Positions 12,361-63,343 of a DNA stretch of 64,000 nt are shown here, piece after piece. This DNA is from Spirochaetota bacterium. Its GTDB lineage: Bacteria > Spirochaetota > UBA4802 > JAGODF01. The notes beneath the pieces are model-generated. The model was not told the DNA's origin and did not search any database. It was given only the letters and a program-made list of their open reading frames with translations. The stretch lies in the NCBI GenBank assembly GCA_029974015.1, contig JARKUF010000017.1, forward strand, positions 16,206 to 80,205, read 5' to 3'. Position numbers and translations under genes: made by a program. The first letter of the stretch is position 1; every line of letters starts with the position of its first letter.

Positions 12361-12395
12361 GGTTTTTCCGCCTTTTTATGCCGGTAGCTGCAATT
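12361..12395 (+). repeat. Internally deleted, degenerate copy of the intergenic element
   Basis: GGTTTTTCCGCC joined via a T run to TATGCCGGTAGCTGCAATT (consensus TTTGCCAGTAGTTACAATT). A palindrome-B-like sequence lies at 12503-12537. Confidence 0.4.
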
Positions 12396-12575
12396 CATTT
12401 GAGTTAGCCCGGAGACTACCCGGCATCAGGAAAAATAGCAAGAAGTAATTGACGATACCGGCGGGCCATGGTATCGGCTTTGTTTCATATACGATGTTTG
12501 CCATAGGGGGCCTCAATTTTGAAGGAAGCTCCCCTGTGGGCAGAAATATTTCCACAATCGTCAGGGGGATGATAT

Positions 12576-13355
12576 TTGGCCATGAACCATTGCAAGCGCG
12601 CCCTGGTTATTATATCCGTTTTTTTCGCACTGGCGGCCGTATTCTGTGAAGAAATGTCCAGGGAGCCTGTGGACCCGTATGGGGAAATTAAAACGCTCCT
12701 CTACGAACAGGAGCGGGCCGCGGAAGCCTTCGCCCTTGCCACGAAGGCCCTGGAAGGACGCCCCGCCGATGCTATGCTCCTGTATCACAGGGGCATGGCC
12801 GGAATGGCGCTGAAGCGGAATGCTGATGCACTTGAGGATTTTTCCGTTGCGCTGAAGCTTGACCCGAAAAACCCAATGGTTTACAACGGGCTGGGTAATA
12901 TTTTCTATCTGCAGTACCAGGACGCAATCGCGGAAAGGTACTGGGCCAGGGGGCTTGCGCTCGCCGGAGACCCGGCAACAAAGGCCCTCTTCTTAGGCAA
13001 TATGTCGCTCATTTCCGCGTCGAAAAAAAAGTATCCCGAGGCAGTCAAACTTCTGAACGAAGCGATTTCCCTTGCCAAGGATGGGCGCTATTACAACTTG
13101 CTGGGAAGAATATATCTGGCCCGGAAAGAGATGAAGAAGGCGCGCGAGGCCTGGACTGCGGCGGTAACGGATCCCGCGATTTCGTTTTCTCAGGCGAGTT
13201 TTCGCCACAACACGCTTTATCGGCTTGCACAGCTCCTCTCGGACCTGAAGGAGGGCCGGGAAGCTCTGAAGTATTGCGGCATGGCGCTGGACCTCTCGCC
13301 AGCGACGGGGGAGTATCAGACGCTGTTTATGAAGCTGAGTAATTCGGTGAAGTAA
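12576..13355 (+). CDS. Exported TPR repeat protein
   Basis: Hydrophobic N-terminus; TPR motifs (ALEDFSVALKLDPKNPMVYNGLG). Confidence 0.8.
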   Translation: MAMNHCKRALVIISVFFALAAVFCEEMSREPVDPYGEIKTLLYEQERAAEAFALATKALEGRPADAMLLYHRGMAGMALKRNADALEDFSVALKLDPKNPMVYNGLGNIFYLQYQDAIAERYWARGLALAGDPATKALFLGNMSLISASKKKYPEAVKLLNEAISLAKDGRYYNLLGRIYLARKEMKKAREAWTAAVTDPAISFSQASFRHNTLYRLAQLLSDLKEGREALKYCGMALDLSPATGEYQTLFMKLSNSVK

Positions 13356-13392
13356 TCTGCGGGGCGATTAACCTGTGGCAAATTTTACAAAC

Positions 13393-13431
13393 TATGAATA
13401 TCCGCCCGTTTTCAGCGGGCGGATATTCATA
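13393..13431. repeat. Hairpin-A variant between convergent genes; probable bidirectional terminator
   Basis: TATGAATATCCGCCCG-N7-CGGGCGGATATTCATA with perfect 16-bp arms; shares the CCGCCCG core with the repeat family. Confidence 0.7.
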
Positions 13432-13454
13432 TACAACATCACATCGGTCAAATG

Positions 13455-14096
13455 TTACAGCTTTTCAATTGCCTCAAGGACCTTCTCCATTGGGAGGGTT
13501 CCCAGGAGCTTTTCAGTTTCGTTTATCACGGTAAGGGGCACCGACTGGACACCGTATTTCACGGATTGGGGAACGAAGGTGGATGCCTCCACCATGTCGG
13601 CGCGTATGTTTTTATTTTCAAGGGCAAGCCTGTGGGCGGTGCTCACGGCACCGGGACAGTAGGGTCAACTAAGTGAGACGAACACCTGCAGGTGAACGTC
13701 TTTATTAATAGCGGCGATGCGCTTCATGATGGGCTCCGGGATGGCCTCCTTAACTCCTGAGGCCTCTATTAAGCTTTTCATGAAGGAATTAATTTCATAT
13801 CCTCCAGGCAGCCCGTAGAACTTCATTCCCGTGTCATTGTCCTTCTCGTCCAAAACCACGATGGCGGGGATCTTGTCCACCCTGTAGTATTCGGCCTTCT
13901 CTTTGTCCTTCACGATGTCGAATACCGTGAGGTTGAGCTTATCCGAGAGGCCGGCGATTTCCTCCACGAACAAACGTGTGTCGTGGCAGGAACCGCATTC
14001 GAATTCCTGGGTGAAGTAGACGAGATTGACCCTGCCCTTCATCCCTCCTAGTATTCCCTTGAGCTGGGAAGATACTTTTTCATCAAAGAGAGCCAT
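13455..14096 (-). CDS. Selenocysteine-containing protein disulfide oxidoreductase (PDO / AhpF N-terminal-domain-like, two thioredoxin folds), 213 aa, Sec144
   Basis: ORFs 13665-14180 and 13455-13646 are in the same frame, separated by one TGA (13665-13667). Read-through gives VFVSLS-U-PYC-PGAV at the second CPYC site. The first site is CGSC. GGAGG RBS before ATG 14096. Confidence 0.88.
13630..13659 (-). promoter_or_regulatory. Candidate bacterial SECIS element
   Basis: Hairpin CGGUGC-CGUGA-GCACCG (17 nt, GU in the loop) starts 11 nt after the UGA, with a lower CUGU/ACAG pairing. Confidence 0.7.
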
Positions 14097-20455: not shown

Positions 20456-20535
20456 AATTACGTTTTCCCGCCCGCCTCTGGCGTGCGGAAAAACGTAATT
20501 TATCTGACTGTCCTTAATTTTTATGAGGCCCCATA
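20456..20535. repeat. Intergenic element copy: hairpin A, right end and half of palindrome B
   Basis: AATTACGTTTTCCCGCCCGCC-TCT-GGCGTGCGGAAAAACGTAATT, then TGACTGTCCTTAA and TTTTTATGAGGCCCCATA. Confidence 0.8.
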
Positions 20536-20556
20536 TATTATCCCACGAGGAAGCGA

Positions 20557-21027
20557 GTGATGAAAAAAGGCGTTCTTTTGCTTCTTGCGCTTTGCATCTC
20601 GGGATGCACGAAAATTCCCGACAGGCTTTATAGCCCTACCGCGGTCATAAAGGCGGAGTTAAGGGGAAGCGAAATTTTTTATACTGTGTATCTGAAGGGC
20701 GATATTATCAACGACCAGACGGAGCTCGTGTTGAAGAAAATCCGCGGCACAGTGGCGCTGAAAAACTCCGACCAGACCGTCATTTCCCTTCCCTTCGAGC
20801 TGCCGGAACTTCTTCCCCTGCAGAAGCAGACGATTAATGCCGAGACGGGCGGTAACGAAAGGGAGATGGCGCCCATCTTCGCCCTTCTGAGGATAAGCCC
20901 CGACCAGCTCCGGGTTGATGACCAGGAGGCTTACACCGAAGAGATGCCGCTCAGCCAGAAGCTCATCGCGTTTGAAATTACGGCCTATGAGTCTGCAAAC
21001 ATATTCGATATCATCGAAGGTAAGTGA
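20557..21027 (+). CDS. Putative lipoprotein
   Basis: MKKGVLLLLALCISGC lipobox. Confidence 0.7.
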   Translation: MMKKGVLLLLALCISGCTKIPDRLYSPTAVIKAELRGSEIFYTVYLKGDIINDQTELVLKKIRGTVALKNSDQTVISLPFELPELLPLQKQTINAETGGNEREMAPIFALLRISPDQLRVDDQEAYTEEMPLSQKLIAFEITAYESANIFDIIEGK

Positions 21028-25143: not shown

Positions 25144-25253
25144 TATCTTATCAAGAGTGGCAGAGGGACAGGCCCCGTGAAGCCACGGCAACCGTCCGCG
25201 GAAGCGGAAAGAGGTGCCAATTCCTACGGAGGATTCCTCCGGGAGATGAGATA
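25144..25253 (+). ncRNA. SAM-I (S-box) riboswitch
   Basis: ATCTTATCAAGAGTGGCAGAGGGACAGGCCCCGTGAAGCCACGGCAACC...GGTGCCAATTCC...GATGAGAT matches the SAM-I consensus; directly upstream of metX. Confidence 0.93.
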
Positions 25254-25316: not shown

Positions 25317-26480
25317 ATGAAAGATACACGGCAGTCAACTGTCGGTTCCGTCGGGCTTGTGAAGACGCATTACTTCACCTTCGCAGAGCCCCCCGGCCAT
25401 CTGGCCCTCGTGTCGGGGAAGCGCCTATCCCCCGTGACCCTTGCCTACGAAACCTATGGCAAGCTTAACAGCGACGCTACCAACGCGGTCCTCATCCTCC
25501 ACGCCCTCTCGGGGACGGCCCACGCCGCCGGATATCATTCAACGAACGACCGCTATGCCGGATGGTGGGACCATTACATCGGCCCCGGGAAGGCCTTTGA
25601 CACCGATAAATATTTCATTATCTGTTCCAATGTGATTGGAGGCTGTAACGGCTCCACGGGGCCATCCTCCATAAACCCCGAAACGGGAAAGGAGTACGCC
25701 CTGGATTTTCCGGTCGTGACTATCAGGGACATGGTGAATGCCCAGTGGCGCCTCATCGGCCATCTCGGGATTTCAAAGCTGCTCGCCGTGAGCGGCGGGT
25801 CAATGGGGGGGATGCAGGCGCTCCAGTGGGCGATCAGCTTTCCGGAAATGGTCCAGTCGGTCATCGCGATCGCGACGGCGAGCTCCCTTTCCGCCCAGGG
25901 CATCGCTTTCAATGAGGTGGGGCGCCAGGCGATCTTTCGGGACCCGAACTTCAATAATGGCGATTACTACTCCGGAAATTCGCCCGTCTCGGGGCTTTCC
26001 CTGGCAAGGATGATAGCCCATATAACTTATCTCAGCGACAAGATCATGCATGAGAAGTTCGGGCGGCGGCTCCAGAACAAGGACCTTTTCAGCTTTAAAT
26101 TCGATACCGAATTCATGGTGGAAAATTATCTCCACGCCATGGGGCTTAAATTCGTAAGCCGTTTTGACGCTAATTCTTATCTCTACATCACCAAGGCGAT
26201 AGACTACTTTGACCTTAAATCGGAACACGAAGGACGGCTCACCTCCGCCTTTGAAGGCGTTTTATCGGACTTTCTGGTTATAGGATTTACCACGGACTGG
26301 CTGTATCCGAGCGCCCAGTCCCGCGAGATTGTCAACGCCCTCCGGGTGGCGGGAAAGAATGTCGTCTATACCGAGATCGAAACCGACAAGGGCCATGACG
26401 CTTTTCTTCTTCCCGATGACCGAATGGAAAGGGACATCGCCAACTTCCTGAAAAGGGAGTTTGAAAAGACAGGCCGTTGA
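25317..26480 (+). CDS. metX: Homoserine O-acetyltransferase
   Basis: HALSG, GGSMGGMQA nucleophile elbow, RFDANSYL, DWLYP, GHDAFL. Confidence 0.95.
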   Translation: MKDTRQSTVGSVGLVKTHYFTFAEPPGHLALVSGKRLSPVTLAYETYGKLNSDATNAVLILHALSGTAHAAGYHSTNDRYAGWWDHYIGPGKAFDTDKYFIICSNVIGGCNGSTGPSSINPETGKEYALDFPVVTIRDMVNAQWRLIGHLGISKLLAVSGGSMGGMQALQWAISFPEMVQSVIAIATASSLSAQGIAFNEVGRQAIFRDPNFNNGDYYSGNSPVSGLSLARMIAHITYLSDKIMHEKFGRRLQNKDLFSFKFDTEFMVENYLHAMGLKFVSRFDANSYLYITKAIDYFDLKSEHEGRLTSAFEGVLSDFLVIGFTTDWLYPSAQSREIVNALRVAGKNVVYTEIETDKGHDAFLLPDDRMERDIANFLKREFEKTGR

Positions 26481-26512: not shown

Positions 26513-27139
26513 TTGCAATACCCTGACTTAAAGAGGATCGCCTACGATCTAATCATCGAAGAAATCCCGGAGGGCTCAAGGGTCCTCGATCTGGGATGCG
26601 GCGATGGAAGTCTCCTTGTGGAACTCCAGAAGGCCAAAAATATCGAAGGATATGGAGTGGAAATATCCTCCGAAGGGGTGAGCTCCTGCGTTGAAAAGGG
26701 CCTCTACGTGTACCAGGGCGACGTGGACGACGGCCTCTCCGGCTACAGGGCGAATTCCTACGATTATGTGATTCTCAACCAGACGCTCCAATACACGAAG
26801 CGCCCCAGGTACGTCCTTGCGGAAACTTTGAGGATATGCCGAAGCGCAATCATAAGTTTTCCCAACTTCGCAAATAAAAAAAACAGAATACATCTTCTAT
26901 TCAGGGGGACCATGCCCGGAAACAGGCTCCTTCCCTATGACTGGCACTCCTCGCCGAACATGCACCACCTTTCAATTAAAGATTTTAGAAATTACTGTCG
27001 GGAGAACGGATACCCGGTGAAAAAAGAAGCCCATTTCAAGGTTGTCGGGGACACCGGTTCCCGCATTGTGGGGTTTGCCCCCAATTTTTGTGCCGAATTC
27101 GGTTTTTTTATACTTGATGGTGAAGGTTTTGTTTCGTAA
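26513..27139 (+). CDS. metW: Methionine biosynthesis protein MetW
   Basis: VLDLGCGDG, YDYVILNQTLQ, SFPNF, LPYDW.SPN; follows metX. Confidence 0.9.
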   Translation: MQYPDLKRIAYDLIIEEIPEGSRVLDLGCGDGSLLVELQKAKNIEGYGVEISSEGVSSCVEKGLYVYQGDVDDGLSGYRANSYDYVILNQTLQYTKRPRYVLAETLRICRSAIISFPNFANKKNRIHLLFRGTMPGNRLLPYDWHSSPNMHHLSIKDFRNYCRENGYPVKKEAHFKVVGDTGSRIVGFAPNFCAEFGFFILDGEGFVS

Positions 27140-38251: not shown

Positions 38252-38260
38252 CGGCAGTTT

Positions 38261-39789: not shown

Positions 39790-39808
39790 AGATAGACCGG
39801 AAAAACCG

Positions 39809-42640: not shown

Positions 42641-42791
42641 TTTAAGGGCAGTCACAAAAACTTCGTTTTCCCGCCCGCCTTCTGCGGGCGGGAAAACCAA
42701 AGTCTTGATTATGACAGCAGTTATAATTTATGGGGCCTCGAAAAATATATTTTTTTGAGGTCTCACACGAGTATTTGTGACTGCCCTTAAA
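42641..42791 (+). mobile_element. MITE-like complete element with perfect 18-bp terminal inverted repeats including flanking TTAA
   Basis: TTTAAGGGCAGTCACAAA (42641-42658) is the exact reverse complement of TTTGTGACTGCCCTTAAA (42774-42791). Contains hairpin A (42665-42697) and palindrome B (about 42729-42765). No coding capacity. Confidence 0.78.
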
Positions 42792-42872
42792 TATTTAGAG
42801 GTACCCATATAATGATATCAGTAAATCGTCAATAATACAAATCAAATATGCAAACAACAACAAATAAAACTT

Positions 42873-42997
42873 CATGGGGCCTTTAAAAATTGAATTTTTC
42901 AAGGCCCCATTTATTGTGACAACTGACAAGTTCAGGACTTAGGTTGTCCCGCCCGCCGAAGACGGGCGGGACAACCTAAGTCCTGTGACTACCCTTG
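42873..42997 (-). repeat. Intergenic element copy (reverse)
   Basis: ATGGGGCCTTTAAAAATTGAATTTTTCAAGGCCCCAT; 53-bp hairpin at 42933-42985; ends in TGTGACTACCCTT. Confidence 0.88.
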
Positions 42998-43168
42998 ATA
43001 TGCACCATTTTCCCAATATCGAAAGCTTTCTTAAAGGGAAATGTCCTCCCGCGGATCGCTGTACCGTGCTTTATGGGGCAGGACTGTTAACCGTCACAGG
43101 GGCCTTGTTTCAAGGTCTTACACCGAAAACAAGTTGATTTTCATCCCGCCTTTTTTATACTATTCCAC

Positions 43169-44125: not shown

Positions 44126-44135
44126 GAAATGGGCC

Positions 44136-44933
44136 TCATCGGGGGCGGAACGCCGTGAGCCGAAAATCAACGAGTATTGATTCCGCGTAATCCCTCACCC
44201 GGATCATTGAGCCGTATCCCGTGTGCCGGGCGAAGTTTTCGAGGATTTTTTTTCTCTGCTCTCCTTGAAGATACAGCTTGTCAAAAAGGAGGGGGAGCTC
44301 CCACTCCGCGTTTTTTTCCTGGAGGAGTTCGTCGACGAAATCAATGATGGTGAAAAATACGAAGGCCCCTTCTTTAAGGAAAGAGTTCCTGTCCTTTTCT
44401 ATTTCGAGGTCGGTTACCCCTTGCCTTTCTAAAAGAAGGATATGGTCCTCAACTCTTTTGGGATTGCGTTTCCCCGTAGGCACAAACAGGTACGTAAGCT
44501 GTTCTTCGATTGTCAGGGCCTTACCCCGGTAGGGGCCTTTCCTGATGATGTAGGGGATGATGGGGTAAAGGTGCCGGGACAGTTCGACGCCTGCGCCAAT
44601 AAAAAGAGGAAGTTCGAGGCCCGCCCTCGGATGAAAAGGAAGCTCGGGATATTTCCGGATACGGGCGATGTTCTCTTCTATGATGCGGTCTACTTTCCTG
44701 GTGAAATCATTTTTCCTCTTTTTCTTATCATATTGAGTGCGGATTTTTTCAAAATTAGTGATTTCAGCGAGAATAAATCCTTCGAGGTTCATTCTGTTTC
44801 GCACCGCCATAGAAAGTCTGTCGTTGAAGGCATTAATGTCGAACCAGCGCGGGCTGAATTTTTTCGCTGATTCAAGATACTTTCCGCGAAGTTTTTCTAT
44901 GAGCACTTCAATTTCTTTTTGGGAAAGCGACAT
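44136..44933 (-). CDS. Hypothetical protein
   Basis: Long ORF with protein-like composition from MSLSQKEIE (44933). Confidence 0.65.
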   Translation of the reverse strand: MSLSQKEIEVLIEKLRGKYLESAKKFSPRWFDINAFNDRLSMAVRNRMNLEGFILAEITNFEKIRTQYDKKKRKNDFTRKVDRIIEENIARIRKYPELPFHPRAGLELPLFIGAGVELSRHLYPIIPYIIRKGPYRGKALTIEEQLTYLFVPTGKRNPKRVEDHILLLERQGVTDLEIEKDRNSFLKEGAFVFFTIIDFVDELLQEKNAEWELPLLFDKLYLQGEQRKKILENFARHTGYGSMIRVRDYAESILVDFRLTAFRPR

Positions 44934-45104
44934 AATGGTTCCTATTATACACGGTATGTTGAACCAGTGTATGGGGCAGCCCTGATGGATGCGGCTCAGG
45001 AATGGCCTAAAATTTTGCAAAATAGCCGTGTGGGTTGGCCACCAATGGAGAAGAGAAGGACCGGGAGAGTAAAAAATCAAGAAATAATTGAAGGCAATCT
45101 ATGA

Positions 45105-45325
45105 GGGTAACCTCAAAATTGTGTTTTTTAGGTTCCCATTTATTGTAACTACAGATATAATCAGGACTAAGGCATTCCCACCCGCCTTTGACGGGCGGGA
45201 ATATTAATTATCAGGTTTTAACCTGAAAATTGCTTGTACAAAAAACATCAAATTCTTGTACCCTTTGCATGAGGCATACTCAGAACAAGGGTATTTCCCG
45301 CCCGCCTTCGGCGGGCGGGAAAACC
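45105..45325. repeat. Two element copies upstream of purM
   Basis: Palindrome B + TTGTAACTAC + ATTCCCACCCGCC..GGGCGGGAAT (45105-45202); TTTCCCGCCCGCCTTCGGCGGGCGGGAAA (45294-45322). Confidence 0.82.
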
Positions 45326-45357
45326 ATCGTTCTAAGTTTAAATATTGTGAGGCAACC

Positions 45358-46392
45358 ATGGGCCTGACCTACAGGGACTCCGGCGTAGACATCGACAAAG
45401 GGAACAGCTTTGTAAGGAGAATTATTCCGGAAGTTAAATCCACCTTCTCCCCAAGGGTGCTGACGGGTATCGGCGGCTTCGGGGCCCTCTTTTCCGGGGC
45501 CTTCCCCGGGCTTAAGGACCCCGTTCTGGTCTCCGGCACCGATGGGGTCGGGACAAAGATACGTATCGCTCAGATGATGAAAGTCCACGACACTATTGGA
45601 ATTGACGCCGTGGCCATGTGCGTGAACGACATCCTGACCTCCGGCGCTTCACCTCTTTTCTTTCTCGATTACCTGGCCTGCGGGAAGCTTGTGGAGGACG
45701 TCCTGGTCGATGTGGTCAGGGGTATTGCGGAAGGGTGCCGTCAGGCGGGCTGCAGCCTCGTGGGAGGGGAAACCGCCGAACATCCCGGCATCATGGCCGA
45801 GGAAGATTACGATATCGCCGGCTTTGCCGTGGGGGTAGTGGACAGGGAAAAGATCATCACCGGAGAGGCCATCGCCGCGGGAGATGTCGTAATAGGGCTT
45901 CCCTCTTCGGGGATCCATTCCAACGGGTTTTCCCTTGTGAGGAAACTTTTTTTCGACATGAAAAAATATACGGTGAATACGGTCATTGACGAACTGGGCG
46001 GGCCTCTGGGAAGGGCGCTTCTTGTTCCGACGAGGATTTACTGCAAGAGCGTTTTGGAGTGCATAAACACCGTTGGAGGGATAAAGGGCCTGGTGCACAT
46101 TACCGGGGGCGGGTTTTACGAAAACATTCCGCGTATCCTCCCCGGGAGTACGGCGGTTAAGATAGAAAAAAAATCATTCATCGTACCGCCGGTGTTCAGG
46201 GTTATGCAGAAGGAAGGAGCTATTGAAGATAGGGAGATGTTCACCACGTTCAATATGGGCATTGGCCTTATGCTCTTTTGTGACAGGAAAAACGCCGACG
46301 CGGTGATGCGTTCACTTTCCGGTTCCGGTGAAAGCCCGGCCGTCATAGGGGAAGTTTTGGAGAGCGGAGGAGAGAGGGTTTCGCTGGTTTAA
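45358..46392 (+). CDS. purM: Phosphoribosylformylglycinamidine cyclo-ligase
   Basis: TYRDSGVDI, TDGVGTK, GGETAE, SSGIHSNGFSL, HITGGG, TFNMG; start moved to ATG 45358. Confidence 0.96.
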   Translation: MGLTYRDSGVDIDKGNSFVRRIIPEVKSTFSPRVLTGIGGFGALFSGAFPGLKDPVLVSGTDGVGTKIRIAQMMKVHDTIGIDAVAMCVNDILTSGASPLFFLDYLACGKLVEDVLVDVVRGIAEGCRQAGCSLVGGETAEHPGIMAEEDYDIAGFAVGVVDREKIITGEAIAAGDVVIGLPSSGIHSNGFSLVRKLFFDMKKYTVNTVIDELGGPLGRALLVPTRIYCKSVLECINTVGGIKGLVHITGGGFYENIPRILPGSTAVKIEKKSFIVPPVFRVMQKEGAIEDREMFTTFNMGIGLMLFCDRKNADAVMRSLSGSGESPAVIGEVLESGGERVSLV

Positions 46393-46428
46393 GGGGTGAA
46401 AATTCGGCTGTCCGCTGACTTTCTGCAC

Positions 46429-46510
46429 TTGTAACTGCTGGAAAATGAAGGAATCATGTTTTTCCGCCCGCCTTCGGCGGGCGGAAAAACATGATTCCTT
46501 TACTGCCCTT
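46429..46510 (-). repeat. Element copy with perfect 25-bp-arm palindrome
   Basis: AAGGAATCATGTTTTTCCGCCCGCC-TTC-GGCGGGCGGAAAAACATGATTCCTT (46448-46500), flanked by TTGTAACTGCTGG and ACTGCCCTT. Confidence 0.88.
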
Positions 46511-46717
46511 TTTTTATTGACAAAATCGGCATTGTTACCGAAGAATAGTTTGTATGAACCCCGGGGCAATGAAATTTGCGCTGTTCTGGCGAGTGTCGTT
46601 CCAAACACCTTTATTTTCATCATCCGCGCAGTTTACCTCGCATTTCACATGAGCATGCATCCTAATAAAATGCAGGCGCTTTTTTTCATGATACTTTCTG
46701 TATAAGGAGACGTTCCA

Positions 46718-48004
46718 ATGGAATCCAAACCGTACAATCCTTTCCATGTCGCACAGGCGCAGTTCGATAAAGTCGCCAAAATGCTCAATCTTGAAGATGG
46801 CGTCAGGGAGCTTTTAAGGGAGCCCCTGCGCGAGTACCAGTTTGTTATCCCGGTCCGCATGGACGGAGGCGGCGTCAAGATATTCAAAGGTTTTAGAGTC
46901 CAGCACAACGACGCCCGGGGGCCCGCGAAAGGGGGAATCCGGTTTCACCCTCATGAAACAATCGACACGGTCAGGGCGCTATCCATGTGGATGACGTGGA
47001 AGTGCTCTGTTGTGGATATTCCCCTCGGGGGAGGAAAGGGCGGGATAGTGTGCGACCCTCATCATCTCAGCGCCCGGGAACAGGAACAGTTATGCAGGGG
47101 CTGGGTCCGACAGATCGCGAAAAACGTCGGGCCGTTTCAAGACGTTCCCGCGCCGGACGTCATGTCGAATGCGCAGCACATGCTGTGGATGCTTGACGAA
47201 TTTGAAGTAATCCATAATGGCCGCTTCCCCGGTTTCATTACGGGGAAGCCCGTGGGATTGGGGGGGTCTCTCGGCCGCACCGAAGCGACGGGTTTTGGCG
47301 TTATCTTCACGTTGCGCGAGGCCCTCAAGGAGCACGGAGTCGATATAGCGAAAACAACGGCAAGCCTTCAGGGCTTTGGAAACGTGTCCCAGAACGCCTT
47401 TAAACTGTACGATGAGCTCGGAGGCAAGGTCATCGCCATTTCCTGCTGGGACCAGGCGGACAAGACCTCGTACACATTCAAAAAGAAAAGCGGGGCCGGT
47501 TTCCAGGAGCTTCTTGCAATCACCGACACATTCGGAGGAATCGACAAGAACAAGGCCAGGGACTGCGGATATGAGGTTTTGCCCGGGGAAGCCTGGATTG
47601 AACAGGAAGTGGACATCCTGATCCCGGCCGCGCTTGAAAACCAGATCAACAAGGACAATGCGGGTAAAATCAGTTCAAAGGTGAAGTTCATCGCCGAAGG
47701 CGCGAACGGCCCGACGACGCCGGAGGCTGATGAGGTCATCAAGAGCAAAGGCATCTTCGTGATACCGGATTTCCTCGCCAATGCCGGTGGCGTCACATGC
47801 AGCTACTTCGAACAGGTCCAGTGCAATATGAACTATTTCTGGGAAAAACGCGAAGTGCTCGAAAAGCTGGACCAGAAGATGACCTCGGCGTTCACCGCCG
47901 TCAGCGAGCTTTCCAAACAGAAATCCCTGTATATGCGTGACGCGGCGTATGTCATCGCAATAGACAGGGTCGCCCGTGCGGTGAAGGCGAGAAGCTGGGT
48001 CTAA
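46718..48004 (+). CDS. gdhA: Glu/Leu/Phe/Val dehydrogenase (glutamate dehydrogenase)
   Basis: GPAKGGIRFHP, GGGKGG, DVPAPD, GRTEATG, QGFGNV, EGANGP, PDFLANAGGV. Confidence 0.9.
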   Translation: MESKPYNPFHVAQAQFDKVAKMLNLEDGVRELLREPLREYQFVIPVRMDGGGVKIFKGFRVQHNDARGPAKGGIRFHPHETIDTVRALSMWMTWKCSVVDIPLGGGKGGIVCDPHHLSAREQEQLCRGWVRQIAKNVGPFQDVPAPDVMSNAQHMLWMLDEFEVIHNGRFPGFITGKPVGLGGSLGRTEATGFGVIFTLREALKEHGVDIAKTTASLQGFGNVSQNAFKLYDELGGKVIAISCWDQADKTSYTFKKKSGAGFQELLAITDTFGGIDKNKARDCGYEVLPGEAWIEQEVDILIPAALENQINKDNAGKISSKVKFIAEGANGPTTPEADEVIKSKGIFVIPDFLANAGGVTCSYFEQVQCNMNYFWEKREVLEKLDQKMTSAFTAVSELSKQKSLYMRDAAYVIAIDRVARAVKARSWV

Positions 48005-51160: not shown

Positions 51161-54100
51161 GTGGAAAAGAGCACCGGCACCCTCAGCAGTCTCAGCAGGT
51201 ACACGCTGCGCGAGGAGCACCTCATCGCCGACAGGTCCATTAAGGAAGAGATAGCCGCCGCCTTCGCGGAAAACCGGTGTTTCGAATTCTTCCCCTCGAA
51301 AGCAGTGCTTGGCCGCATCCGCGGCGGCGCATCCGACGCGGACCTCGGGGACGACATCGACTCTCTCCGGGGCGCCATCATCGATACCGCCGTTAAGGAC
51401 GACGGGACCCTCAAGGGGAGGTTCCAGAGCGACACCCGCCTCCTGAGGCGGATTTCCACGGCGGTCCTCATCATCCACAGGGCAATGGCGGAGTCGGAAC
51501 AGCCCATGCCAGTGGACCGGCGCATTGTCCTGGTCAAGGAACGCCACGGCGTACCGACCCTTTTCCACAGGTCATCGGAAACGACGGTCATATCCCATGT
51601 GGGACAGGGGCCGGAGTGGCGGGAAATTCCCACGGTTTATCTGGGCCTAAATATCTTCGACGCCATTTACCAGGAAAGGAAGAAGAACGAAACGGCCCTC
51701 TACGATACGTTCAAGACCATTCTCATGATTGAGGAGAGGGCCATCCAGACAGGCTTTTCCCATACGGAAACGTTTTCGCCCGCCATATCCAGGGCGCTGA
51801 ATGTTTTCGTCGACGAGCTGATCCGCATTTCAACGCTGAAAGAAATCGAGGCCGCCGAAGTCCCGGAGGTGAAGAGGGTGCGCCCTTTCACGGAGCGCAA
51901 TCGGGAGAGCTTTGTGAAGATGCTCAACGCAAGGATCCGCGGCGACGAACTTAATTTCCACTATGGGAAGAATGTGAAGGCCATGGACTCCCTGGAGCGC
52001 CTGGCCCGCCGTTACAAGAAAGGGGGCGATCCGGCATCACTGAAGGAAGTGGTGCGCCTCCTCGTGGCCGCCTCGGGTCACGATCTACATGAAGTGCGCA
52101 ACCGCGCCAACATAGCCCTGGAGAGGGTATTCGCGCCAAAGGAATACGACGCTCCCCTGGCGGCCAAATTCATCAACCTGAAATCCGGAGACGAATACAG
52201 GTTTGAATTTGACCTGCCCCTCCACAAGCCCGGATACTTTCTGCGCCTATACCGAAACACCCTGGACCGCCAGCGGAAGTTCATCACCGAGGACGGCCTT
52301 TCCTATATTGATATGGAACTGGAATATGCGGAAGGGCCGAAAAAGTATGCCCTCTGCCATTGTTTCGACGAATACGGCCATTATGATTTCCTGGTTTTCA
52401 AGCGGAAAAGAAAGTCCAGCGAATGGGTCACCGCCCACGGGGCGAGCGGACGGGTCAACGTGGTCCCCGATGTAAGAGGGGAGATTATCCTGGAAATATT
52501 CACCGACATCCACGGACACACCGGCGTTTACTGGCGCGACAGGTCCGGTCATCCGGGGCTGGTGTACAATGAGAACGGAGAGGTGATCCGCCTGGGGCGC
52601 TTCTCCGATATCACTGCGCATCTGGAGGACCTGAAGGCACGATACCTCATCACCTCAATTTACATCCTGGGGATGCAAAAGCGCGGAACCAACCGCCAGG
52701 ATTGGGCCCCAGAAGCGTCCTCGCCATCTCCCTTTTCCCCAATGAGCCTCGTGGAGCCCGAGCCTTCCCTTGGAGGGGCCGATGAGTTTCGAAACCTGAT
52801 AACTCGCGCCCATGAGCTCGGTATAAAAATCATTGTGGACGTCGTGCCTCACCTTAACCGCACGAGCACGGAGGTGCCGGACAGCTATGCCGTCCTTTGC
52901 TACGATTACGAAGGCCGCCTCGGAAAGCGCGCATCCACGGACGGGAGGTTCGGGAGCTGGAACGACGGGATGCTTTTAAACTATCGGATGTTTGAGGTCT
53001 GGGAATGGCTCACCGGTTCCATTCTCCAGCTCATAGAGCAGTTCGATATCGACGGAATACGATTCGACTCGGCCCACGCGGTCCCAATAGCAATGAAGCG
53101 GAACAATTACCCCTTCATCTGGGAAGACCGCCGCACCGACGAAGAGATGCTTCTGGGAAACATCATCGTCAACGACCGCGAATACGGCCGCTTCATGACG
53201 ACGGGGTACTACGACTCGGCGTGCCGGGACATTATAGCCATCCCCCTCCATTATTTCATCATGCAGAACATCGAATCGATGCTAAGGGAGCGGGAAAAGA
53301 ATTTCTTCATATTCCTGGCGGAATGCTACTGGGGACATGAGCGTTTTCTCTCCCGCTGCGGGATTATCCCCTACAATTCATCGCTTTTTAAAATTTGCGA
53401 GAACATCATCCACGGTAAGACCGACGTACGGGAAATCTATCATTTTTACGATAACTATCTTCCCTCGTCGCTTCCGGAGGGCACCGAGCTTCTGGGGATT
53501 TTAGGCAATCACGACGAGAGGCGCGCCTTGAACACCTTCGGCCACAGGGGCCTCAGGGCCGCCGTGGGCCTCTCCATAATGATGAGCAATATCGTCATGG
53601 ATTATGAGGGGAGCGCCGAAGGGGAAGGTTGGAAGGTGTATCTGGACAACATTTTCGTCAACTGGAACAGTTTCGAGTACGCCGCCCACCGGAGCGTGGA
53701 ACGCTTTTACCGGGAGTGGTACGAGTTCCACCGGGAAAACCGCGGGAAGGGATATCTTGTGTGGGCCAACAATAACATGGTCGCCGCGGCGGTGAAGTTC
53801 GCCACTACGGGGGTGTGGCTTGCCGCGTTCAACTTCGCCAACGCGAACCAGTCCGTATCGATACAGTTCGACAATCCTGTCCTTCCCCTGAAAGATGACG
53901 ACCTCATCCGGGTGGTGGACCTCCTCTACTCCCCCATCACAGGCCATTATAGCTACTTCACCGGACGGGAGCTGAAGTCCTCGAAAATCAACACCGTGGT
54001 GTCCTACACGGAGAGGATAAAGCTCTTTAAACTGGAAATGCTTGAAAGCATTGAGGGCCATTATACCGAATTTTTGGCCGACTCCTTCTTCAGGCTTTGT

Positions 54101-56032
54101 TCTATTTCTAATATCGCGCATTTCCGTTCCAATTTTTCCTTCGGTGAAATAGCCGCGAACTTCTCCGATGGAGAGGCGATGAAAAAATACCTCTCTTCGG
54201 TCCTAATCCCCGAATTCTGGAAGGAGCACCGTTTTTTCCTGGAGCTGGGCCTCAAGCGCGCGTTCTTCCATCTGTTCCATAATGGCATGAAAGACGGGAA
54301 TGAGGTCCTGGAGTTTATCGACCTTTTAAGCGATGACGGCGATGAGTTCCTGGCCGCCCTGGGGGAGTCCCTGGCCTGGCACAGCCGGAGGGGTTCTCTT
54401 GTCTTCATGTCCGCCGAGGCTGAGCCTTTCTCCAAAAGCGGCGGCCTGGCCAATGTGGTCTACGAGCTTCCCCGGGAGCTCGCCGCCATGGGTGAGGACG
54501 TCTGCGTGATTACCGGTTACTACCGCGGCGGCGACGAAAAGGCCATTGGGAAAATGAGCGATGCGGTAAAACGCTACGGCGTGGCCCACACCGGGCGGAA
54601 TGTTCGCTTTAAAATAATGGACCACGATTACGAGGTGGGGGTCCACTACGGCGAGGTGGAGGGGGTTCGATACTACCTCCTGGACCACTACGAGTTTTTT
54701 GACGGGCTCTACTGGGGAATCACCTCCCAGGAAAAATTGCGGCGGCGTATCGCTTTCTCTCGGGCCTGTGCCGAGGTGATCTGCACTTTCGGATTACGTC
54801 CCCATTTTACCTTCACCAATGACGCCTACGCCGGGCTTTTCAACGGCATCGTTAAATGCGACCATGTATACTACTCCAATCCGAATTTCCAGCGGACTTC
54901 ATTTCTCCATATCATCCATAACGGGGGATGGCAATACTTCGATTCGTACCACCGTTTCGAAGGAGGTTTCGATCTTTTCAGCCTCTTCAATCTTCCCCAG
55001 TGGCGCGCTTCGGAGTTTCTCGACCCTGTGGAGGGGGACAAAATCAACTGCATGGCGGCGGGGATCCGCATGGCGGACCGCACCATCACCGTTAGCCCCA
55101 GCTATGCGCGGCAGATTGAATACGCCTGCGACGGGCTGGAGAGGATACTCTTCAATGTTATAGGGATCAGCAATGCCATAGGCCGGGACTTCAAGGACCG
55201 GATCGTTGATCGTTTTAACGCATCCAAATTCCGGGAGCGTAACTACGGGCCCCTCGTGGAGGCGATAAAGGCGGACGCCGCCCTTGAGGAAAAAATCGCA
55301 TCGAGGTTCCCTGAGATACTGAAGGGGCCCGCGGCCGTCGACGGGGTCCATGATCCGGTGCGCCGCACCGTCCTCACCCGCGCTCTGAACAAGATGCTTT
55401 TACAGATGGAGCGGGGCTTCACGGTGGACCCCGACATCCTCATCTTTTCGATGATACACCGCATTACGGAACAGAAGGGGTTTCAGCTTGTCCTCGAAGC
55501 GTCGAAGGGCCTTTTCGAGCACCTGGGGTATCAGGCGGTCATCGGCGGGGCCGTCTCTTCCGGGGACCGGCGTGGTGAGGAGATAGCCCATGGGCTTTAT
55601 CTTCTCTCGCAGTACTACGGGAAGGGGGTTTCGGTTAATTTCGGGTTCCAGGAGATAAGCATCCCCCTCTTTTCCTCGGACATTTTCTGCATGCCTTCGA
55701 TGAACGAACCCGGGGGGATCTCCCAGCTCGAGGCTTTTGCCGCGGGGTGCCTCGTTGTTGCCCGGGCAACAGGGGGACTCCGCGACACGGTTTTTCCAGT
55801 GCGGACAACAGACGACGGCGTGGAGGGGAACGGCTTTCTTTTTTCCGATTACTCGGCCTGGGCGTACTACGATGCCATGGAGCGGGCACATCGGTTTTTC
55901 CGCGACCATGACGACGAGACCGCGGCGAAGGCCCGTATCAATGCGGAAAATTCGGTCTATTTCTGGGACCGCCCGGCGCGCCGGTACATTCAGGAAATAT
56001 ACAGGATCAAAGAGATTATTCGGGTGATATAA
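51161..56032 (+). CDS. Fusion of an unassigned N-terminal region, a GH13 alpha-amylase-family domain and a GT5 glycogen/starch synthase
   Basis: GH13 motifs DGIRFDSAH (D636), FLAECYW (E721), GNHDE (D785). GT5 motifs PFSKSGGLANV (K1092), IIHN, HRITEQKG, NEPGGISQLEA, TGGLRDTV. Confidence 0.88.
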   Translation: MEKSTGTLSSLSRYTLREEHLIADRSIKEEIAAAFAENRCFEFFPSKAVLGRIRGGASDADLGDDIDSLRGAIIDTAVKDDGTLKGRFQSDTRLLRRISTAVLIIHRAMAESEQPMPVDRRIVLVKERHGVPTLFHRSSETTVISHVGQGPEWREIPTVYLGLNIFDAIYQERKKNETALYDTFKTILMIEERAIQTGFSHTETFSPAISRALNVFVDELIRISTLKEIEAAEVPEVKRVRPFTERNRESFVKMLNARIRGDELNFHYGKNVKAMDSLERLARRYKKGGDPASLKEVVRLLVAASGHDLHEVRNRANIALERVFAPKEYDAPLAAKFINLKSGDEYRFEFDLPLHKPGYFLRLYRNTLDRQRKFITEDGLSYIDMELEYAEGPKKYALCHCFDEYGHYDFLVFKRKRKSSEWVTAHGASGRVNVVPDVRGEIILEIFTDIHGHTGVYWRDRSGHPGLVYNENGEVIRLGRFSDITAHLEDLKARYLITSIYILGMQKRGTNRQDWAPEASSPSPFSPMSLVEPEPSLGGADEFRNLITRAHELGIKIIVDVVPHLNRTSTEVPDSYAVLCYDYEGRLGKRASTDGRFGSWNDGMLLNYRMFEVWEWLTGSILQLIEQFDIDGIRFDSAHAVPIAMKRNNYPFIWEDRRTDEEMLLGNIIVNDREYGRFMTTGYYDSACRDIIAIPLHYFIMQNIESMLREREKNFFIFLAECYWGHERFLSRCGIIPYNSSLFKICENIIHGKTDVREIYHFYDNYLPSSLPEGTELLGILGNHDERRALNTFGHRGLRAAVGLSIMMSNIVMDYEGSAEGEGWKVYLDNIFVNWNSFEYAAHRSVERFYREWYEFHRENRGKGYLVWANNNMVAAAVKFATTGVWLAAFNFANANQSVSIQFDNPVLPLKDDDLIRVVDLLYSPITGHYSYFTGRELKSSKINTVVSYTERIKLFKLEMLESIEGHYTEFLADSFFRLCSISNIAHFRSNFSFGEIAANFSDGEAMKKYLSSVLIPEFWKEHRFFLELGLKRAFFHLFHNGMKDGNEVLEFIDLLSDDGDEFLAALGESLAWHSRRGSLVFMSAEAEPFSKSGGLANVVYELPRELAAMGEDVCVITGYYRGGDEKAIGKMSDAVKRYGVAHTGRNVRFKIMDHDYEVGVHYGEVEGVRYYLLDHYEFFDGLYWGITSQEKLRRRIAFSRACAEVICTFGLRPHFTFTNDAYAGLFNGIVKCDHVYYSNPNFQRTSFLHIIHNGGWQYFDSYHRFEGGFDLFSLFNLPQWRASEFLDPVEGDKINCMAAGIRMADRTITVSPSYARQIEYACDGLERILFNVIGISNAIGRDFKDRIVDRFNASKFRERNYGPLVEAIKADAALEEKIASRFPEILKGPAAVDGVHDPVRRTVLTRALNKMLLQMERGFTVDPDILIFSMIHRITEQKGFQLVLEASKGLFEHLGYQAVIGGAVSSGDRRGEEIAHGLYLLSQYYGKGVSVNFGFQEISIPLFSSDIFCMPSMNEPGGISQLEAFAAGCLVVARATGGLRDTVFPVRTTDDGVEGNGFLFSDYSAWAYYDAMERAHRFFRDHDDETAAKARINAENSVYFWDRPARRYIQEIYRIKEIIRVI

Positions 56033-59539: not shown

Positions 59540-59643
59540 TGTTTTCCCGGCCGCCTTCGTCAGGCGGGAAAACCGAAGTACTTAGTATGCCAGTAGTTAC
59601 ATTTTATGGGAACATCAAAATTTAATTTTCAGGGGTCCCCATA
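59540..59643 (+). repeat. Intergenic element copy (hairpin A, linker, palindrome B)
   Basis: GTTTTCCCGGCCGCCTTCGTCAGGCGGGAAAAC...TATGCCAGTAGTTACATTTTATGGGAACATCAAAATTTAATTTTCAGGGGTCCCCATA. Confidence 0.85.
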
Positions 59644-59681
59644 ATTTTTAAGTCTCCATAAAAATGAAAGAGAGGAGCGCC

Positions 59682-60820: not shown

Positions 60821-60857
60821 GGGTTACCCAGCCAGCCTTCGGTGGACGGACAACCCC
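60821..60857. repeat. Degenerate hairpin-A copy
   Basis: GGGTTACCCAGCCAGCCTTCGGTGGACGGACAACCCC versus GGTTGTCCCGCCCGCCTTCGGCGGGCGGGACAACC. Confidence 0.55.
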
Positions 60858-60894
60858 GAGCTTTGTAATTAACCGGGGTAATACGGCCCAGAGT

Positions 60895-61617
60895 TTATTG
60901 GATTTTCATACAGCAGTTTTTATATTTCATTCCGCTTCCGCAGGGGCAGGGGTCGTTTCTCCCCGTGTCCGGTATTTTTCCCTGGTTAATCAGCTCCAGA
61001 GCGTCCTTCCGGATAGCGTTGACCTTCGATGTGAGGGTTATGAGGATAGACACGGCCAAAACGAGGTCGTCTTTTGTTATATCGTCCCCTTTCAATTTTC
61101 CCGAAAGGGCCACCGCGTAGTTGAAAAGCGAGGCCGTTGACGGTTCGAAAGTCCTGTCAATGTATTCCTCCATCCCCCGGGGGGAACTCATGGGGACATT
61201 GAACCGCTTGACCATTCCCTTGAGGACTGCGACGAGCCATGTTACGCAAAGCTTTTTCGCGTCTTCTTCGCGCCCGTGAAGGACCAGAAGAGCGTCAGCA
61301 AGGTCGGAGAGCTTTTTTGCGGTCCTCTCGTTCTTCTTTTCTTTTTCAATGTCTTCCACAAGGGCGATGACGGATTGGTAAAAGGCGGTGTAAATCCGTG
61401 CGGGTCCTTTCGCGTCCTCCCTCGTTTCGAGGCCGTAGCGCAGGTTTAGCTCGCCAATTTTCACCGCCAGGTTGTATTTCCCCTCGGGATCGTGGAACAT
61501 GTAAAGGATGGAGAGCGTCTCCTCCAACAGGTCCAGGGAAAGCTCCATCCTGCTGAAGGCGTCGGCGAACCGCTGGAGCAGGTGGGGATGAAGGGGGCCG
61601 GTAAATTCTTCAGACAT
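60895..61617 (-). CDS. SEC-C motif protein
   Basis: C-terminal GRNDPCPCGSGMKYKNCC. Confidence 0.85.
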   Translation of the reverse strand: MSEEFTGPLHPHLLQRFADAFSRMELSLDLLEETLSILYMFHDPEGKYNLAVKIGELNLRYGLETREDAKGPARIYTAFYQSVIALVEDIEKEKKNERTAKKLSDLADALLVLHGREEDAKKLCVTWLVAVLKGMVKRFNVPMSSPRGMEEYIDRTFEPSTASLFNYAVALSGKLKGDDITKDDLVLAVSILITLTSKVNAIRKDALELINQGKIPDTGRNDPCPCGSGMKYKNCCMKIQ

Positions 61618-63109
61618 GGCCGCCGGAGCTCTCTGGCCGCAGGAGCGGGAAAAGGATCGTGTCTTTAATTGAGGCGGTGTTCACGAAGAGCATCACGACC
61701 CGGTCGATACCGATGCCCATGCCCCCTGCCGGGGGCATGCCGTATTCAAGGGCCGCTATGTAATCGTAGTCCATCATCTGGGCTTCCTCATCGCCGGCCT
61801 CACGCATTTTCACCTGCTCCTCGAAGCGCCGCCTCTGGTCGATGGGGTCGTTGAGCTCCGAGAAGGCGTTGCCGATTTCGCGCCCGGCGATGTACGGCTC
61901 AAAGCGCTCAACGAACTCGAGATTGTCGTCACGTGACTTCGCCAGGGGCGAAAGCTCCGTGGGGTAGTCCATGACGAAGGTGGGCTGAATGAGGTTTTTC
62001 TCCACCCGCTCCTCGAATACGAATTCGGCCACGCGCCACTTTGAAAGCTTGCCGTCTATTTTGATGCCGATGCTCCGGGCCGCTTCACGCGCTTCGTCAC
62101 CGGACGATAGGGTAGTGAAATCCAGGCCGGTGTATTTTTTAATCGCGTCGAGATAAGTAATCCTCGTCCATGGGGGCGTGAGGTCAATTTTTTCGTCCAG
62201 ATAATCGATCACGGTGTCCCCCAGGAGCTTTCGGGCGAGGGAGGATATCATGTCCTCGCAGATTTCCATCATCACATTGTAGTCGGCATAGGCTTCGTAG
62301 AGCTCCAGCATGGTGAACTCGGGATTGTGCCTGGTTGATATTCCCTCATTGCGGAAGTTACGGTTGAGCTCGAATACTTTTTCAAAGCCACCCACGAGGA
62401 GGCGCTTCAGGTAGAGCTCCGGCGCGATGCGGAGATAGAGCTTCATGTCCAGGGCATTGTGATGGGTGATAAAGGGGCGCGCGGCGGCCCCTCCCGGTAT
62501 CGCCTGCATCATGGGGGTCTCCACCTCAATGTAGCCCCTTGAGGAGAGGTACTCCCGGATGCCGGTGATGACCCGGCTTCGGAGGATGAAGTCCTTCCGA
62601 GTTTTAGGGGTGACGATGAGGTCCACGTATCTCTGGCGGTACCGGAGCTCCCGGTCCGCGAACTCGTCGAAGAGCTGGCCGTCCTTTTCCTTCACCGTGG
62701 GAAGGGGCCTGATACACTTTGCCAGGAGGGTGAAGTCCGCCACTTCTATGGTTATCTCCCCGGTCTTCGTGCGGAACGTTTTTCCGGAGACGCCGATGAT
62801 ATCTCCAAGGTCCAGGGACTTGAAGATTTCGTACTTGTCCGGGCCAAGGGCGTCCTGCTTGAAGTAAAGCTGGATGGTTCCTGTAATGTCCTCAATGTGG
62901 GTGAAGGAGGCCTTCCCCATCATCCGCCGGGAACGGATGCGTCCCGCTGCGCTGGCGGATACAGGTTTTTCATCGCTGTGTTTCGCAATGATGTCGGCGG
63001 TGTGGCTGTCCCTGGGAAATCGGATGGGATAGGGGTTTATATTCTTGGCCCGCAGATGCTCCACCTTTTCGATGCGCTGGCGCATTATGTCATTGAATTC
63101 TTCGCTCAT
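61610..63109 (-). CDS. lysS: Lysine--tRNA ligase (class II)
   Basis: RYRQRYVDL, GGAAARPF, LRIAPELYLKRL, FRNEG...HNPEF, YGMPPAGGMGIGIDR. Confidence 0.97.
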   Translation of the reverse strand: MSEEFNDIMRQRIEKVEHLRAKNINPYPIRFPRDSHTADIIAKHSDEKPVSASAAGRIRSRRMMGKASFTHIEDITGTIQLYFKQDALGPDKYEIFKSLDLGDIIGVSGKTFRTKTGEITIEVADFTLLAKCIRPLPTVKEKDGQLFDEFADRELRYRQRYVDLIVTPKTRKDFILRSRVITGIREYLSSRGYIEVETPMMQAIPGGAAARPFITHHNALDMKLYLRIAPELYLKRLLVGGFEKVFELNRNFRNEGISTRHNPEFTMLELYEAYADYNVMMEICEDMISSLARKLLGDTVIDYLDEKIDLTPPWTRITYLDAIKKYTGLDFTTLSSGDEAREAARSIGIKIDGKLSKWRVAEFVFEERVEKNLIQPTFVMDYPTELSPLAKSRDDNLEFVERFEPYIAGREIGNAFSELNDPIDQRRRFEEQVKMREAGDEEAQMMDYDYIAALEYGMPPAGGMGIGIDRVVMLFVNTASIKDTILFPLLRPESSGGHV

Positions 63110-63137
63110 GGGCAGGGAACTCCTTGGTTATAAGTAA

Positions 63138-63343
63138 TAAGGCAACCTATAATACTCAGGCTTTCCCGCCAGCCGAAGGCGGGCGAAAAAGTCTGAGTCC
63201 TGAGTATGCCAGTAGTTACATGCAATCTCTAATAATTAGGCTTTCCCGCCCGCCTTCGGCTGGCGGGAAAACCTAAGTCCTGAGTTTGCCGGTAGTTACA
63301 ATTTATGGGAACCTCAAAAATTTAATTTTTAGAGGCTCCCTTA
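63138..63343 (+). repeat. Two tandem element copies upstream of lysS
   Basis: Hairpin A at 63161 and 63241, each followed by GTCCTGAGT(A/T)TGCC(A/G)GTAGTTACA. The second ends with ATGGGAACCTCAAAAATTTAATTTTTAGAGGCTCCC. Confidence 0.88.

Follow-up and report, generated by a model that had tools for sequence, protein, structure and literature searches.

A high-copy intergenic repeat of an uncultured spirochaete, very probably a family of miniature inverted-repeat transposable elements with IS5-type ends

The stretch of DNA considered here is a window of 64,000 nucleotides (positions 16,206 to 80,205 of contig JARKUF010000017.1, or G000:C22:16206-80205 in our numbering) from the genome of an uncultured Spirochaetota bacterium, G000 (GCA_029974015.1), a 3.26-Mb draft of 48 contigs that is 93.9% complete. 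Its genes are ordinary housekeeping genes, with glgC, malQ, leuS, lysS, ruvB, purM, gdhA, metX/metW and holA among them. Between these genes recurs a repeat unit composed of a long hairpin (hairpin A), a linker and a second palindrome (palindrome B), and this unit is the subject of the present report. An initial annotation, made from the letters of the window, named 15 hairpin positions on both strands and noted that no transposase lay among them. With a profile hidden Markov model (HMM) built from copies throughout the genome, nhmmer defines 16 non-overlapping loci in the window; all 15 of the named positions fall inside these loci, confirming the recurrent units as real, and both orientations are indeed represented. 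None of the 49 open reading frames (ORFs) in the window matches a transposase family in NCBIfam, as the annotation had stated. The 16 loci are listed below with their window coordinates, strand, extent in the model and nhmmer score.

13377..13425, + strand: degenerate hairpin A fragment, model 1-49; weak, 17.2 bits
20455..20532, + strand: partial unit, model 13-94, ending 25 nt 5' of an ORF start (20557); 36.9 bits
24447..24563, - strand: full-length unit with hairpin A, linker and palindrome B, model 1-117; 119.8 bits
35863..35919, + strand: fragment, model 48-104, abutting the next unit; 27.3 bits
35922..36038, + strand: near-full unit, model 1-117, from the subfamily whose left arm is the variant GGGCAGTCACAAA; 96.2 bits
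36102..36153, + strand: left half of a unit, model 1-52, missing from the orthologous intergenic region of the same-genus genome G001; 25.7 bits
36173..36290, + strand: full-length unit, model 2-120, 25 nt 5' of where the glycosyltransferase ORF starts (36315), missing from the G001 orthologous region; 92.6 bits
42647..42764, + strand: full unit of the variant-arm subfamily; 96.4 bits
42876..42982, - strand: unit without its outermost left end, model 13-119; 87.2 bits
45107..45203, - strand: unit without its left arm, model 21-119; 69.1 bits
45272..45327, - strand: hairpin A core only, immediately 5' of the real purM start; 41.4 bits
46427..46498, - strand: hairpin A and arms without palindrome B, model 12-83; 55.6 bits
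59535..59640, + strand: unit without its outer left end, model 14-120, ending 24 nt 5' of an ORF start (59664); 90.8 bits
60820..60916, + strand: degenerate copy; weak, 21.4 bits
63141..63220, + strand: hairpin A and linker, model 1-80, head-to-tail with the next unit; 69.9 bits
63222..63340, + strand: best full-length copy of the window, model 2-120, upstream of lysS; 130.8 bits

The 15-nt arm of hairpin A, with at most two mismatches allowed, matches the window 21 times against 0.41 expected from shuffles (shuffle maximum 2), and a direct-repeat search of the window grouped 13 hairpin copies as well as longer units of 4-7 copies. The short B motif alone reached no significance in the window (5 matches, 1.4 expected). 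Both the linker and palindrome B are present as the initial annotation described them; the letters that it gave for palindrome B need correction, the genome-wide consensus being GGGAACCTC and not GGGGCCTC. Sequence at position 12361 resembles a decayed right half of the unit and fails the HMM at E 0.01. In the case of purM, the crude ORF matches its family only from residue 37 onwards. Three mechanically called ORFs or ORF starts (13375-13662, 35683-36009 and 45256-45364) overlap units and have no family match; these calls are likely spurious and caused by the repeats.

The canonical unit is a 120-nt consensus with no coding content. Its left end, GGCAACCTCTAATAATT, and its right end, AATTTTTAGAGGTTCCC, form terminal inverted repeats of 17 nt, in which GGCAACCTCTAATAATT agrees at 15 of 17 positions with GGGAACCTCTAAAAATT, the reverse complement of the right end. 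The left terminal repeat doubles as the outer arm of a long imperfect hairpin, whose GC-rich core is the hairpin A of the initial annotation. A linker of 16 nt leads to palindrome B, in which an inward copy of the terminal repeat is paired with an outward one, the outer arm being the right terminal repeat itself. Folded as single-stranded DNA, the copy at 63222-63340 forms exactly two hairpins (-28 kcal/mol, z -5.7), and none of 200 shuffles folds as well.

To measure the family genome-wide, as the initial annotation had proposed, two successive HMMs were used. The first, built from eight window copies, returned 1155 hits that collapse into 643 non-overlapping loci spread over 34 of the 48 contigs; these occupy 58.8 kb or 1.8% of the genome, and 480 of them lie wholly outside crude ORFs of at least 90 amino acids. 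The second, built from 235 aligned full copies, recovered the family at about 690 loci (1301 raw nhmmer hits, 691 non-overlapping loci). The family is a mosaic: counting as full length a model coverage from position 6 or before to position 114 or beyond, 244 of the 691 loci are full length, 199 consist of the left end plus hairpin A, 98 of the hairpin core only, 62 of the left half only, 45 of A plus B without the left end, 29 of the B side only, and 14 are of other kinds. A separate scan found 587 hairpin cores with at most four mismatches, against 37 in the reversed genome, and the arms of hairpin A among these cores occur in at least three variants, combining as 124, 41 and 27 loci. One such variant, GGGCAGTCACAAA, provides the copy at window 42636-42790 with an inverted repeat of its own, this wider span being bracketed by the 18-nt perfect repeat TTTAAGGGCAGTCACAAA and its complement. 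Units consisting of hairpin A only were considered as a separate mobile form and rejected; no obvious 4-nt duplications were seen around them on inspection, and they are read as truncated or recombined copies.

Units occupy 450 of the 2175 intergenic regions of G000, about one in five, and make up about 15% of the DNA outside crude ORFs. That the units are always intergenic, as first noted, is nearly correct, with 588 of the 691 loci lying between crude ORFs of at least 90 amino acids; several of the rest lie inside ORFs without a family match or 5' of a true start, as with purM. The clustering in pairs and triples reported for the window is only partly borne out: 63 neighbour pairs overlap or lie less than 5 nt apart, whereas counts per region are near random, regions with 1, 2, 3 and at least 4 elements numbering 337, 92, 17 and 4 against 348, 77, 18 and 7 for length-weighted random placement. 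Neighbouring units mostly stand head-to-tail, sharing the same orientation in 101 cases and taking opposite ones in 42. Relative to genes, 150 units in tandem intergenic regions point along the genes and 133 point opposite, and the 588 intergenic loci divide into 283 in tandem, 231 in divergent and 74 in convergent regions, in keeping with the shares of these regions in the available length (52%, 33% and 15%). Three contig ends fall inside units. Among full units genome-wide, a crude start codon is found 10-30 nt away from 50 of the 308 ends that face a start, and 31 of these form a small peak at 20-30 nt; window examples, from unit end to start, are 20532 to 20557, 36290 to 36315 and 59640 to 59664. 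This spacing may reflect no more than how close to a ribosome-binding site, on its 5' side, an insertion is tolerated.

The evidence that these units are transposable elements begins at their borders. Among 119 copies with exact ends (model 1-120), 42 are flanked by identical 4-nt sequences, while shuffles give a mean of 2.9 and a maximum of 10, and a further 27 match at three of the four flank positions. At 5 nt, a single match was found among the same 119 copies, and shifted boundaries give only the expected sub-matches. The 42 duplications comprise 26 different 4-mers with an A+T content of 85%, TTAA being the commonest (7). In a second genome, G033, 4-nt duplications flank 7 of 10 exact-ended copies; these were drawn from the best-scoring 20 of 38 rows, so the sample leans to well-kept copies.

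The ends of the unit also identify a partner insertion sequence (IS). Within G000, matches to the transposase families PF01609 and PF01797 sit on contigs other than that of the window, and a genome-wide search with PF01609 gave one weak match, at C34:133466-133603. There, C34:133451-133778 holds the 3' end of a transposase reading frame, coding for its last 58 residues, which are 87-91% identical to proteins of 339 amino acids that carry PF05598 and PF01609, some of which are named IS5 family transposases. About 150 nt past this coding stretch the remnant ends in AATTTTTAGAGGTTCCC, the right end of the repeat unit, at the same spacing as in G001. A search of 122 genomes of the order with one of these 339-residue proteins as query located an intact transposase in G001, with 338 amino acids, no stops and 81% identity to the query, and with scores of 256.8 bits to NF033581 (IS5 family transposase, cut-off 140), 87.8 bits to PF01609 and 57.6 bits to PF05598. 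The G001 IS is 1265 bp long and has a single DDE transposase and 17-nt inverted ends starting with GG. Its left end, GGGAACCTCTAAAAATT, is identical to the reverse complement of the right end of the unit at all 17 positions, its two ends agree with one another at 16 of 17, and TTAA lies on both sides; since TTAA is palindromic, one IS copy cannot fix the length of the duplication, which the repeat copies do. G044 (1263 bp), G060 and, as a pseudogene, G017 also have copies of an IS with these ends. In the genome of the window the IS survives only as the 3' remnant, outside the window; a transposase remnant was sought elsewhere in G000 and in G033 and not found, and PF13546, the IS701-type DDE domain, has no match in the genome. 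Small contigs of 1.5-4 kb were considered as copies of the partner IS and found not to be.

On the basis of 17-nt inverted repeats, AT-rich duplications of 4 bp, ends identical to those of an IS5-family IS and a 3' remnant of that IS in the same genome, the repeat units are very probably a MITE family (miniature inverted-repeat transposable elements) with IS5-type ends. The original proposal of a non-autonomous element mobilised in trans is thereby supported, the patchy distribution described below adding to the same evidence. Of the transposase types that it put forward as partners, the IS5 type is borne out; the HUH type associated with repetitive extragenic palindromic (REP) sequences, the REP-associated tyrosine transposase (RAYT), is not, as the sole RAYT gene of the genome is flanked by a different palindrome. 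In the mechanism that we propose, the transposase would bind both 17-nt ends and then excise or copy the unit, and insertion at AT-rich sites through a 4-bp staggered cut would leave the direct repeats of 4 bp. Amplification to about 690 loci in G000 would have followed the split from the nearest sampled congener, and most copies would now be old and fixed, many of them truncated or recombined into mosaics with variant arms.

Turning to distribution, a search of 41 genomes (G000 and 40 relatives) at E 0.001 gave some match in nine, with many full-length matches only in G000 and G033; the other seven hold matches of 25-43 nt, that of G001 being the end of its IS. Throughout the order, at E 1e-12, the full-length unit is present in multiple copies in 4 of 122 genomes (G000, G033, G068 and G071), which belong to three families, and at that threshold it was found in none of the other 10 genomes of the family to which G000 belongs. 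In a phylum-wide sample, scored on two candidates per genome, 3 of 401 genomes match, all within the same order. The consensus sequences of G000 (178 copies) and G033 (15 copies) agree at 118 of 120 positions. For a consensus so nearly identical in genomes of different families, horizontal spread appears to be the likeliest explanation. A further, unlikely possibility is that the element moved between the families of the order without its IS, which would need a vehicle not yet seen. Viral contigs gave no exact match to the hairpin core, and plasmid and phage collections gave no blastn match.

In a metagenome scan, 30 of 48 loci carry the MITE; many of these are the same G033-like insertions across several samples and are not independent counts. 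The remaining 18 loci, on other metagenome contigs, carry a different repeat with an identical GC hairpin core and other flanks, AATATTTCCC on the left and a recurring TATGCCGCCACAGGC on the right (loci L063, L064, L070, L076, L077, L081, L083, L087, L092, L094, L095, L098-L101, L105, L106 and others). This may possibly be a related family in another organism.

One intergenic region of the window could be compared directly with its counterpart in the same genus. In G000 the region at 35470-36326 measures 856 nt and contains four units, while in G001 it measures 303 nt and contains none. Both genomes have, 5' of the glycosyltransferase gene, a conserved block of ATTGACAATT followed by CTTTCATCC and CAATTG (window 36040-36100; G001 locus L013, about 5670-5760). 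This promoter-like block lies directly beside two units. Since those two units stand between the promoter-like block and the start codon in G000, they should belong to a 5' untranslated region. Public contigs from three independent DNA runs reproduce the junctions between units and flanks with no differences (e.g. 36048-36377 and 44789-45323). The unit at 36173-36290 is covered both by a DNA contig (X6, 36048-36377, 0 differences) and by an RNA-library contig (X11, 36206-36447), and the latter runs from inside the unit into the downstream gene; the library may contain DNA, so that co-transcription of the unit with that gene is weakly hinted at. Over 35000-47500 the listed contig joints link different units and are repeat-induced. 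An internal search for empty sites gave one candidate for a unit nested in another, which proved not to be nested.

Several observations weigh against the assignment to a MITE family or limit how far it extends. A perfect duplication is kept in only 35% of exact-ended copies and is not proof for every copy; given a divergence of about 15% per site, a quarter to half of the duplications would be predicted to remain intact, and we infer that the observed 35% fits a duplication at every insertion. The copies are old, having a mean identity to consensus of 84.6% in G000 (range 65-99%), and the two most similar of the 178 full copies share 97.7%, so that none of the pairs attains 98%. A search at E 1e-20 turned up no intact cognate transposase in any of the four carrier genomes (G000, G033, G068 and G071). 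As these are draft assemblies (93.9% complete for G000) and a multi-copy IS is often left unassembled, present-day mobility is unproven. Except for some 17-19 nt at either end, the unit bears no visible trace of descent from the IS, and so it is not the product of a simple deletion within it. The orthologous intergenic DNA of G001 is too diverged to have yielded an exact empty site, and where the contigs of four public runs cover 35000-47500, no joint skips a unit. Lastly, the base-paired positions of hairpin A show an excess of compensatory changes over shuffles, which is not required of a purely selfish and neutrally decaying element and which is taken up again below.

Hairpin A is GC-rich, palindromic and frequent in intergenic DNA, its units are often adjacent, and the genome does encode one RAYT (L001, G000:C13:2499-3143, - strand, outside the window; NF047646 86.4 bits with a cut-off of 80, PF01797 36.4 bits). 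The hairpins could accordingly be palindromes of the REP type, or of the related REP doublets forming hairpins (REPIN), spread by this RAYT in the manner of proteobacterial bacterial interspersed mosaic elements (BIMEs) and REPINs. The consensus linker has a GTAG, at positions 72-75, which abuts neither stem. The nearest unit to the RAYT gene is a weak one 6 kb away, and what flanks the gene is instead the 20-nt palindrome GCGCGCAAGCGCTTGCGCGC, which is present 6-7 times in the genome and in three of these cases at or within the gene itself. HUH single-strand transposition is not known to yield target duplications of the kind found here. The combination of 4-bp target duplications with inverted ends equal to those of an IS5 element contradicts this explanation and makes it highly improbable. 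A quite different concern is that the repeats arose by chimeric joins or contamination during metagenome assembly and binning. G000 is a draft in 48 contigs, three of which end within units, and the depth of the units is inflated in public contig sets. Nonetheless, long contigs carry units that are set among housekeeping genes (leuS, lysS, ruvB and purM, for instance), contigs of three independent studies reproduce the junctions of unit and flank without difference, and the same family with target duplications is present in other genomes, which leaves an artefact with next to no credibility.

A further rival is that the units are primarily host-functional, with hairpins kept by selection as terminators, mRNA-stabilising structures, small RNA genes or protein-binding sites, and that their transposon traits are secondary. 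Over the 19 base pairs of hairpin A in 178 full copies, pairing holds in 87.9% of cells, compared with 82.1% in shuffles (82.9% at most), and double-change cells number 194 against 66 (largest 86). At pair 17-55, for example, T-A occurs 83 times and C-G 44 times, and at pair 25-47 C-G occurs 106 times and T-A 32 times; the double-change excess of palindrome B is smaller (53 against 30). Many units also stand in likely 5' untranslated regions, as judged by the 50 of 308 start-facing ends close to a crude start codon, and one RNA-library contig, possibly of DNA origin, spans a unit interior into the downstream gene. Against this, orientation relative to genes is unbiased (150 versus 133) and convergent regions are not preferred. 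No terminator-like sites were found in the two units scanned (63100-63450), and direct reading of the sequence places a T run 5' and an A run 3' of the GC stem on both strands, the wrong order for an intrinsic terminator. Rfam has no match to the units, the sole match in the window being a riboswitch elsewhere; in a permissive search of 63100-63400 the best scores were 18-20 bits against thresholds of 74-80. The congener and the 10 other genomes of the taxonomic family of G000 lack the repeat, so that no host function that is conserved relies on its presence. As for the covariation, it may stem from subfamilies that trace back to a small number of master copies, or from correction of one palindrome arm against the other. 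A primary host function is on these grounds improbable. The suggestion in the initial annotation that the element is perhaps domesticated found no direct support, with no gene-orientation bias and no terminator-like sites, its sole hint being the compensatory excess in hairpin A. Possible causes of that excess are subfamily descent, arm-to-arm correction, or structural selection linked to transposition or to the host. That selection beyond descent has kept hairpin A, and that the element or a subset of its copies was possibly taken over by the host, is unlikely, though less so than a primary host function. If true, it would make of the units a 5' untranslated or mRNA-end structure that tunes the expression or stability of hundreds of genes, or alternatively a site bound by a nucleoid or topology protein.

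A MITE family with IS5-type ends thus remains the preferred reading, and it matters in several ways. It explains a conspicuous feature of the genome, namely the units in about one-fifth of intergenic regions and the associated contig breaks. It pairs an orphan repeat with its IS across two genomes, illustrating that a MITE can persist after the loss of its transposase, or can appear in draft assemblies from which the transposase is missing. For annotation, it marks about 690 places prone to spurious short ORFs and wrong start codons. By virtue of the near-identical consensus across families, the element could also serve as a marker of gene flow for this wastewater and digester lineage of spirochaetes.

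Other features of the genome were noted along the way. The GCGCGCAAGCGCTTGCGCGC palindrome, of which a third copy lies inside the RAYT coding sequence and in which contigs C21 and C47 begin, constitutes a second, small family of repeats that is distinct from the MITE. A multi-copy group II intron (397-residue ORF, RVT_1 and GIIM) breaks the assembly at no fewer than six contig ends, being found at the 5' ends of C3, C5, C22 (the contig of the window) and C34, at the 3' ends of C33 and C4, and internally at C32:101789 (L057). A contig-end repeat starting with GGGAACGTCAAAA was at one point a candidate for a related terminal repeat; it is actually the end of this intron. At least five other contig-end sequences shared within G000 suggest further repeated elements. 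In the window, an S-adenosylmethionine (SAM, S-box) riboswitch at 25145-25252 (+ strand, 92.1 bits) lies directly 5' of metX (25317-26480) and metW (26513-27139). Finally, an ORF of 1623 amino acids at 51161-56032 (+ strand) matches a family, glycogen synthase GlgA, only in its last 220 or so residues, while NCBIfam gives no match at E 1e-10 to the first 1400.

Among known systems, the closest are the IS5-derived bacterial MITEs, such as Nezha of cyanobacteria and Chunjie of Geobacter. Like them, the present family is small and non-coding, has inverted repeats in common with an autonomous IS and a short duplication, and occurs in hundreds of mostly intergenic copies with a patchy distribution. 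It differs from them in its own sequence, in its uncultured Spirochaetota host, and in an interior made of a long GC-cored hairpin and a second palindrome with an extra inward copy of the terminal repeat. The IS5 family includes a subgroup with 4-bp duplications, which the partner element of G001 resembles in its DDE transposase, inverted ends and TTAA flanks; the unit, unlike an IS of that subgroup, carries no transposase, and its target 4-mers are varied and AT-rich with no fixed YTAR-type site. The Correia elements of Neisseria (CREE/NEMIS) are, as commonly described, also about 100-150 nt long, with inverted ends, hundreds of intergenic copies, 1-2% of the genome and hairpin folds, and they are often co-transcribed with neighbouring genes. 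Correia elements have a TA duplication and an integration host factor (IHF) site, and we know of no cognate transposase for them; by that description, the varied 4-bp duplication and the identified IS5-type partner set the present family apart, and neither the initial annotation nor we noticed a resemblance in sequence. REP, BIME and REPIN sequences share with it the character of GC-rich, often adjoining intergenic palindromes in high copy. REPs are 20-40 nt long, lack target duplications and flank their RAYT gene, whereas the present units are 120 nt long, have target duplications and do not flank the RAYT gene. According to one study, REP palindromes have a GTAG or CGTC tetranucleotide at one end (PMC3733652).

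Placing the family among catalogued MITEs depends on a census of conserved MITEs in 183,232 genomes, whose available portion gives an average of 145.4 per genome for Spirochaetes (Leptospira, Sediminispirochaeta and Treponema), a highest total of 468 per genome, of 161 kinds, in a cyanobacterium, and a resemblance to ISfinder entries for only 1.6% of the MITEs (PMC11602168). Among such entries, the same portion mentions an IS1106 (IS5)-related MITE of Neisseria (PMC11602168). From the spirochaete average as it is given there, the richness of spirochaetes in MITEs is already published. The roughly 690 loci of one family in G000 exceed the per-genome maximum of 468 given in that portion of the census, with the caveat that the counting methods differ. 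The initial annotation did not recognise the repeat as a described family, which holds for Rfam and for the plasmid and phage collections, where no match was found; the sequences of ISfinder and of the census MITEs lay outside the comparison. Full-text literature searches, judged by titles and the beginnings of abstracts, found no description of this MITE family. In relation to known systems, then, the family is not a new class of element; it is an ordinary kind of element at unusually high density.

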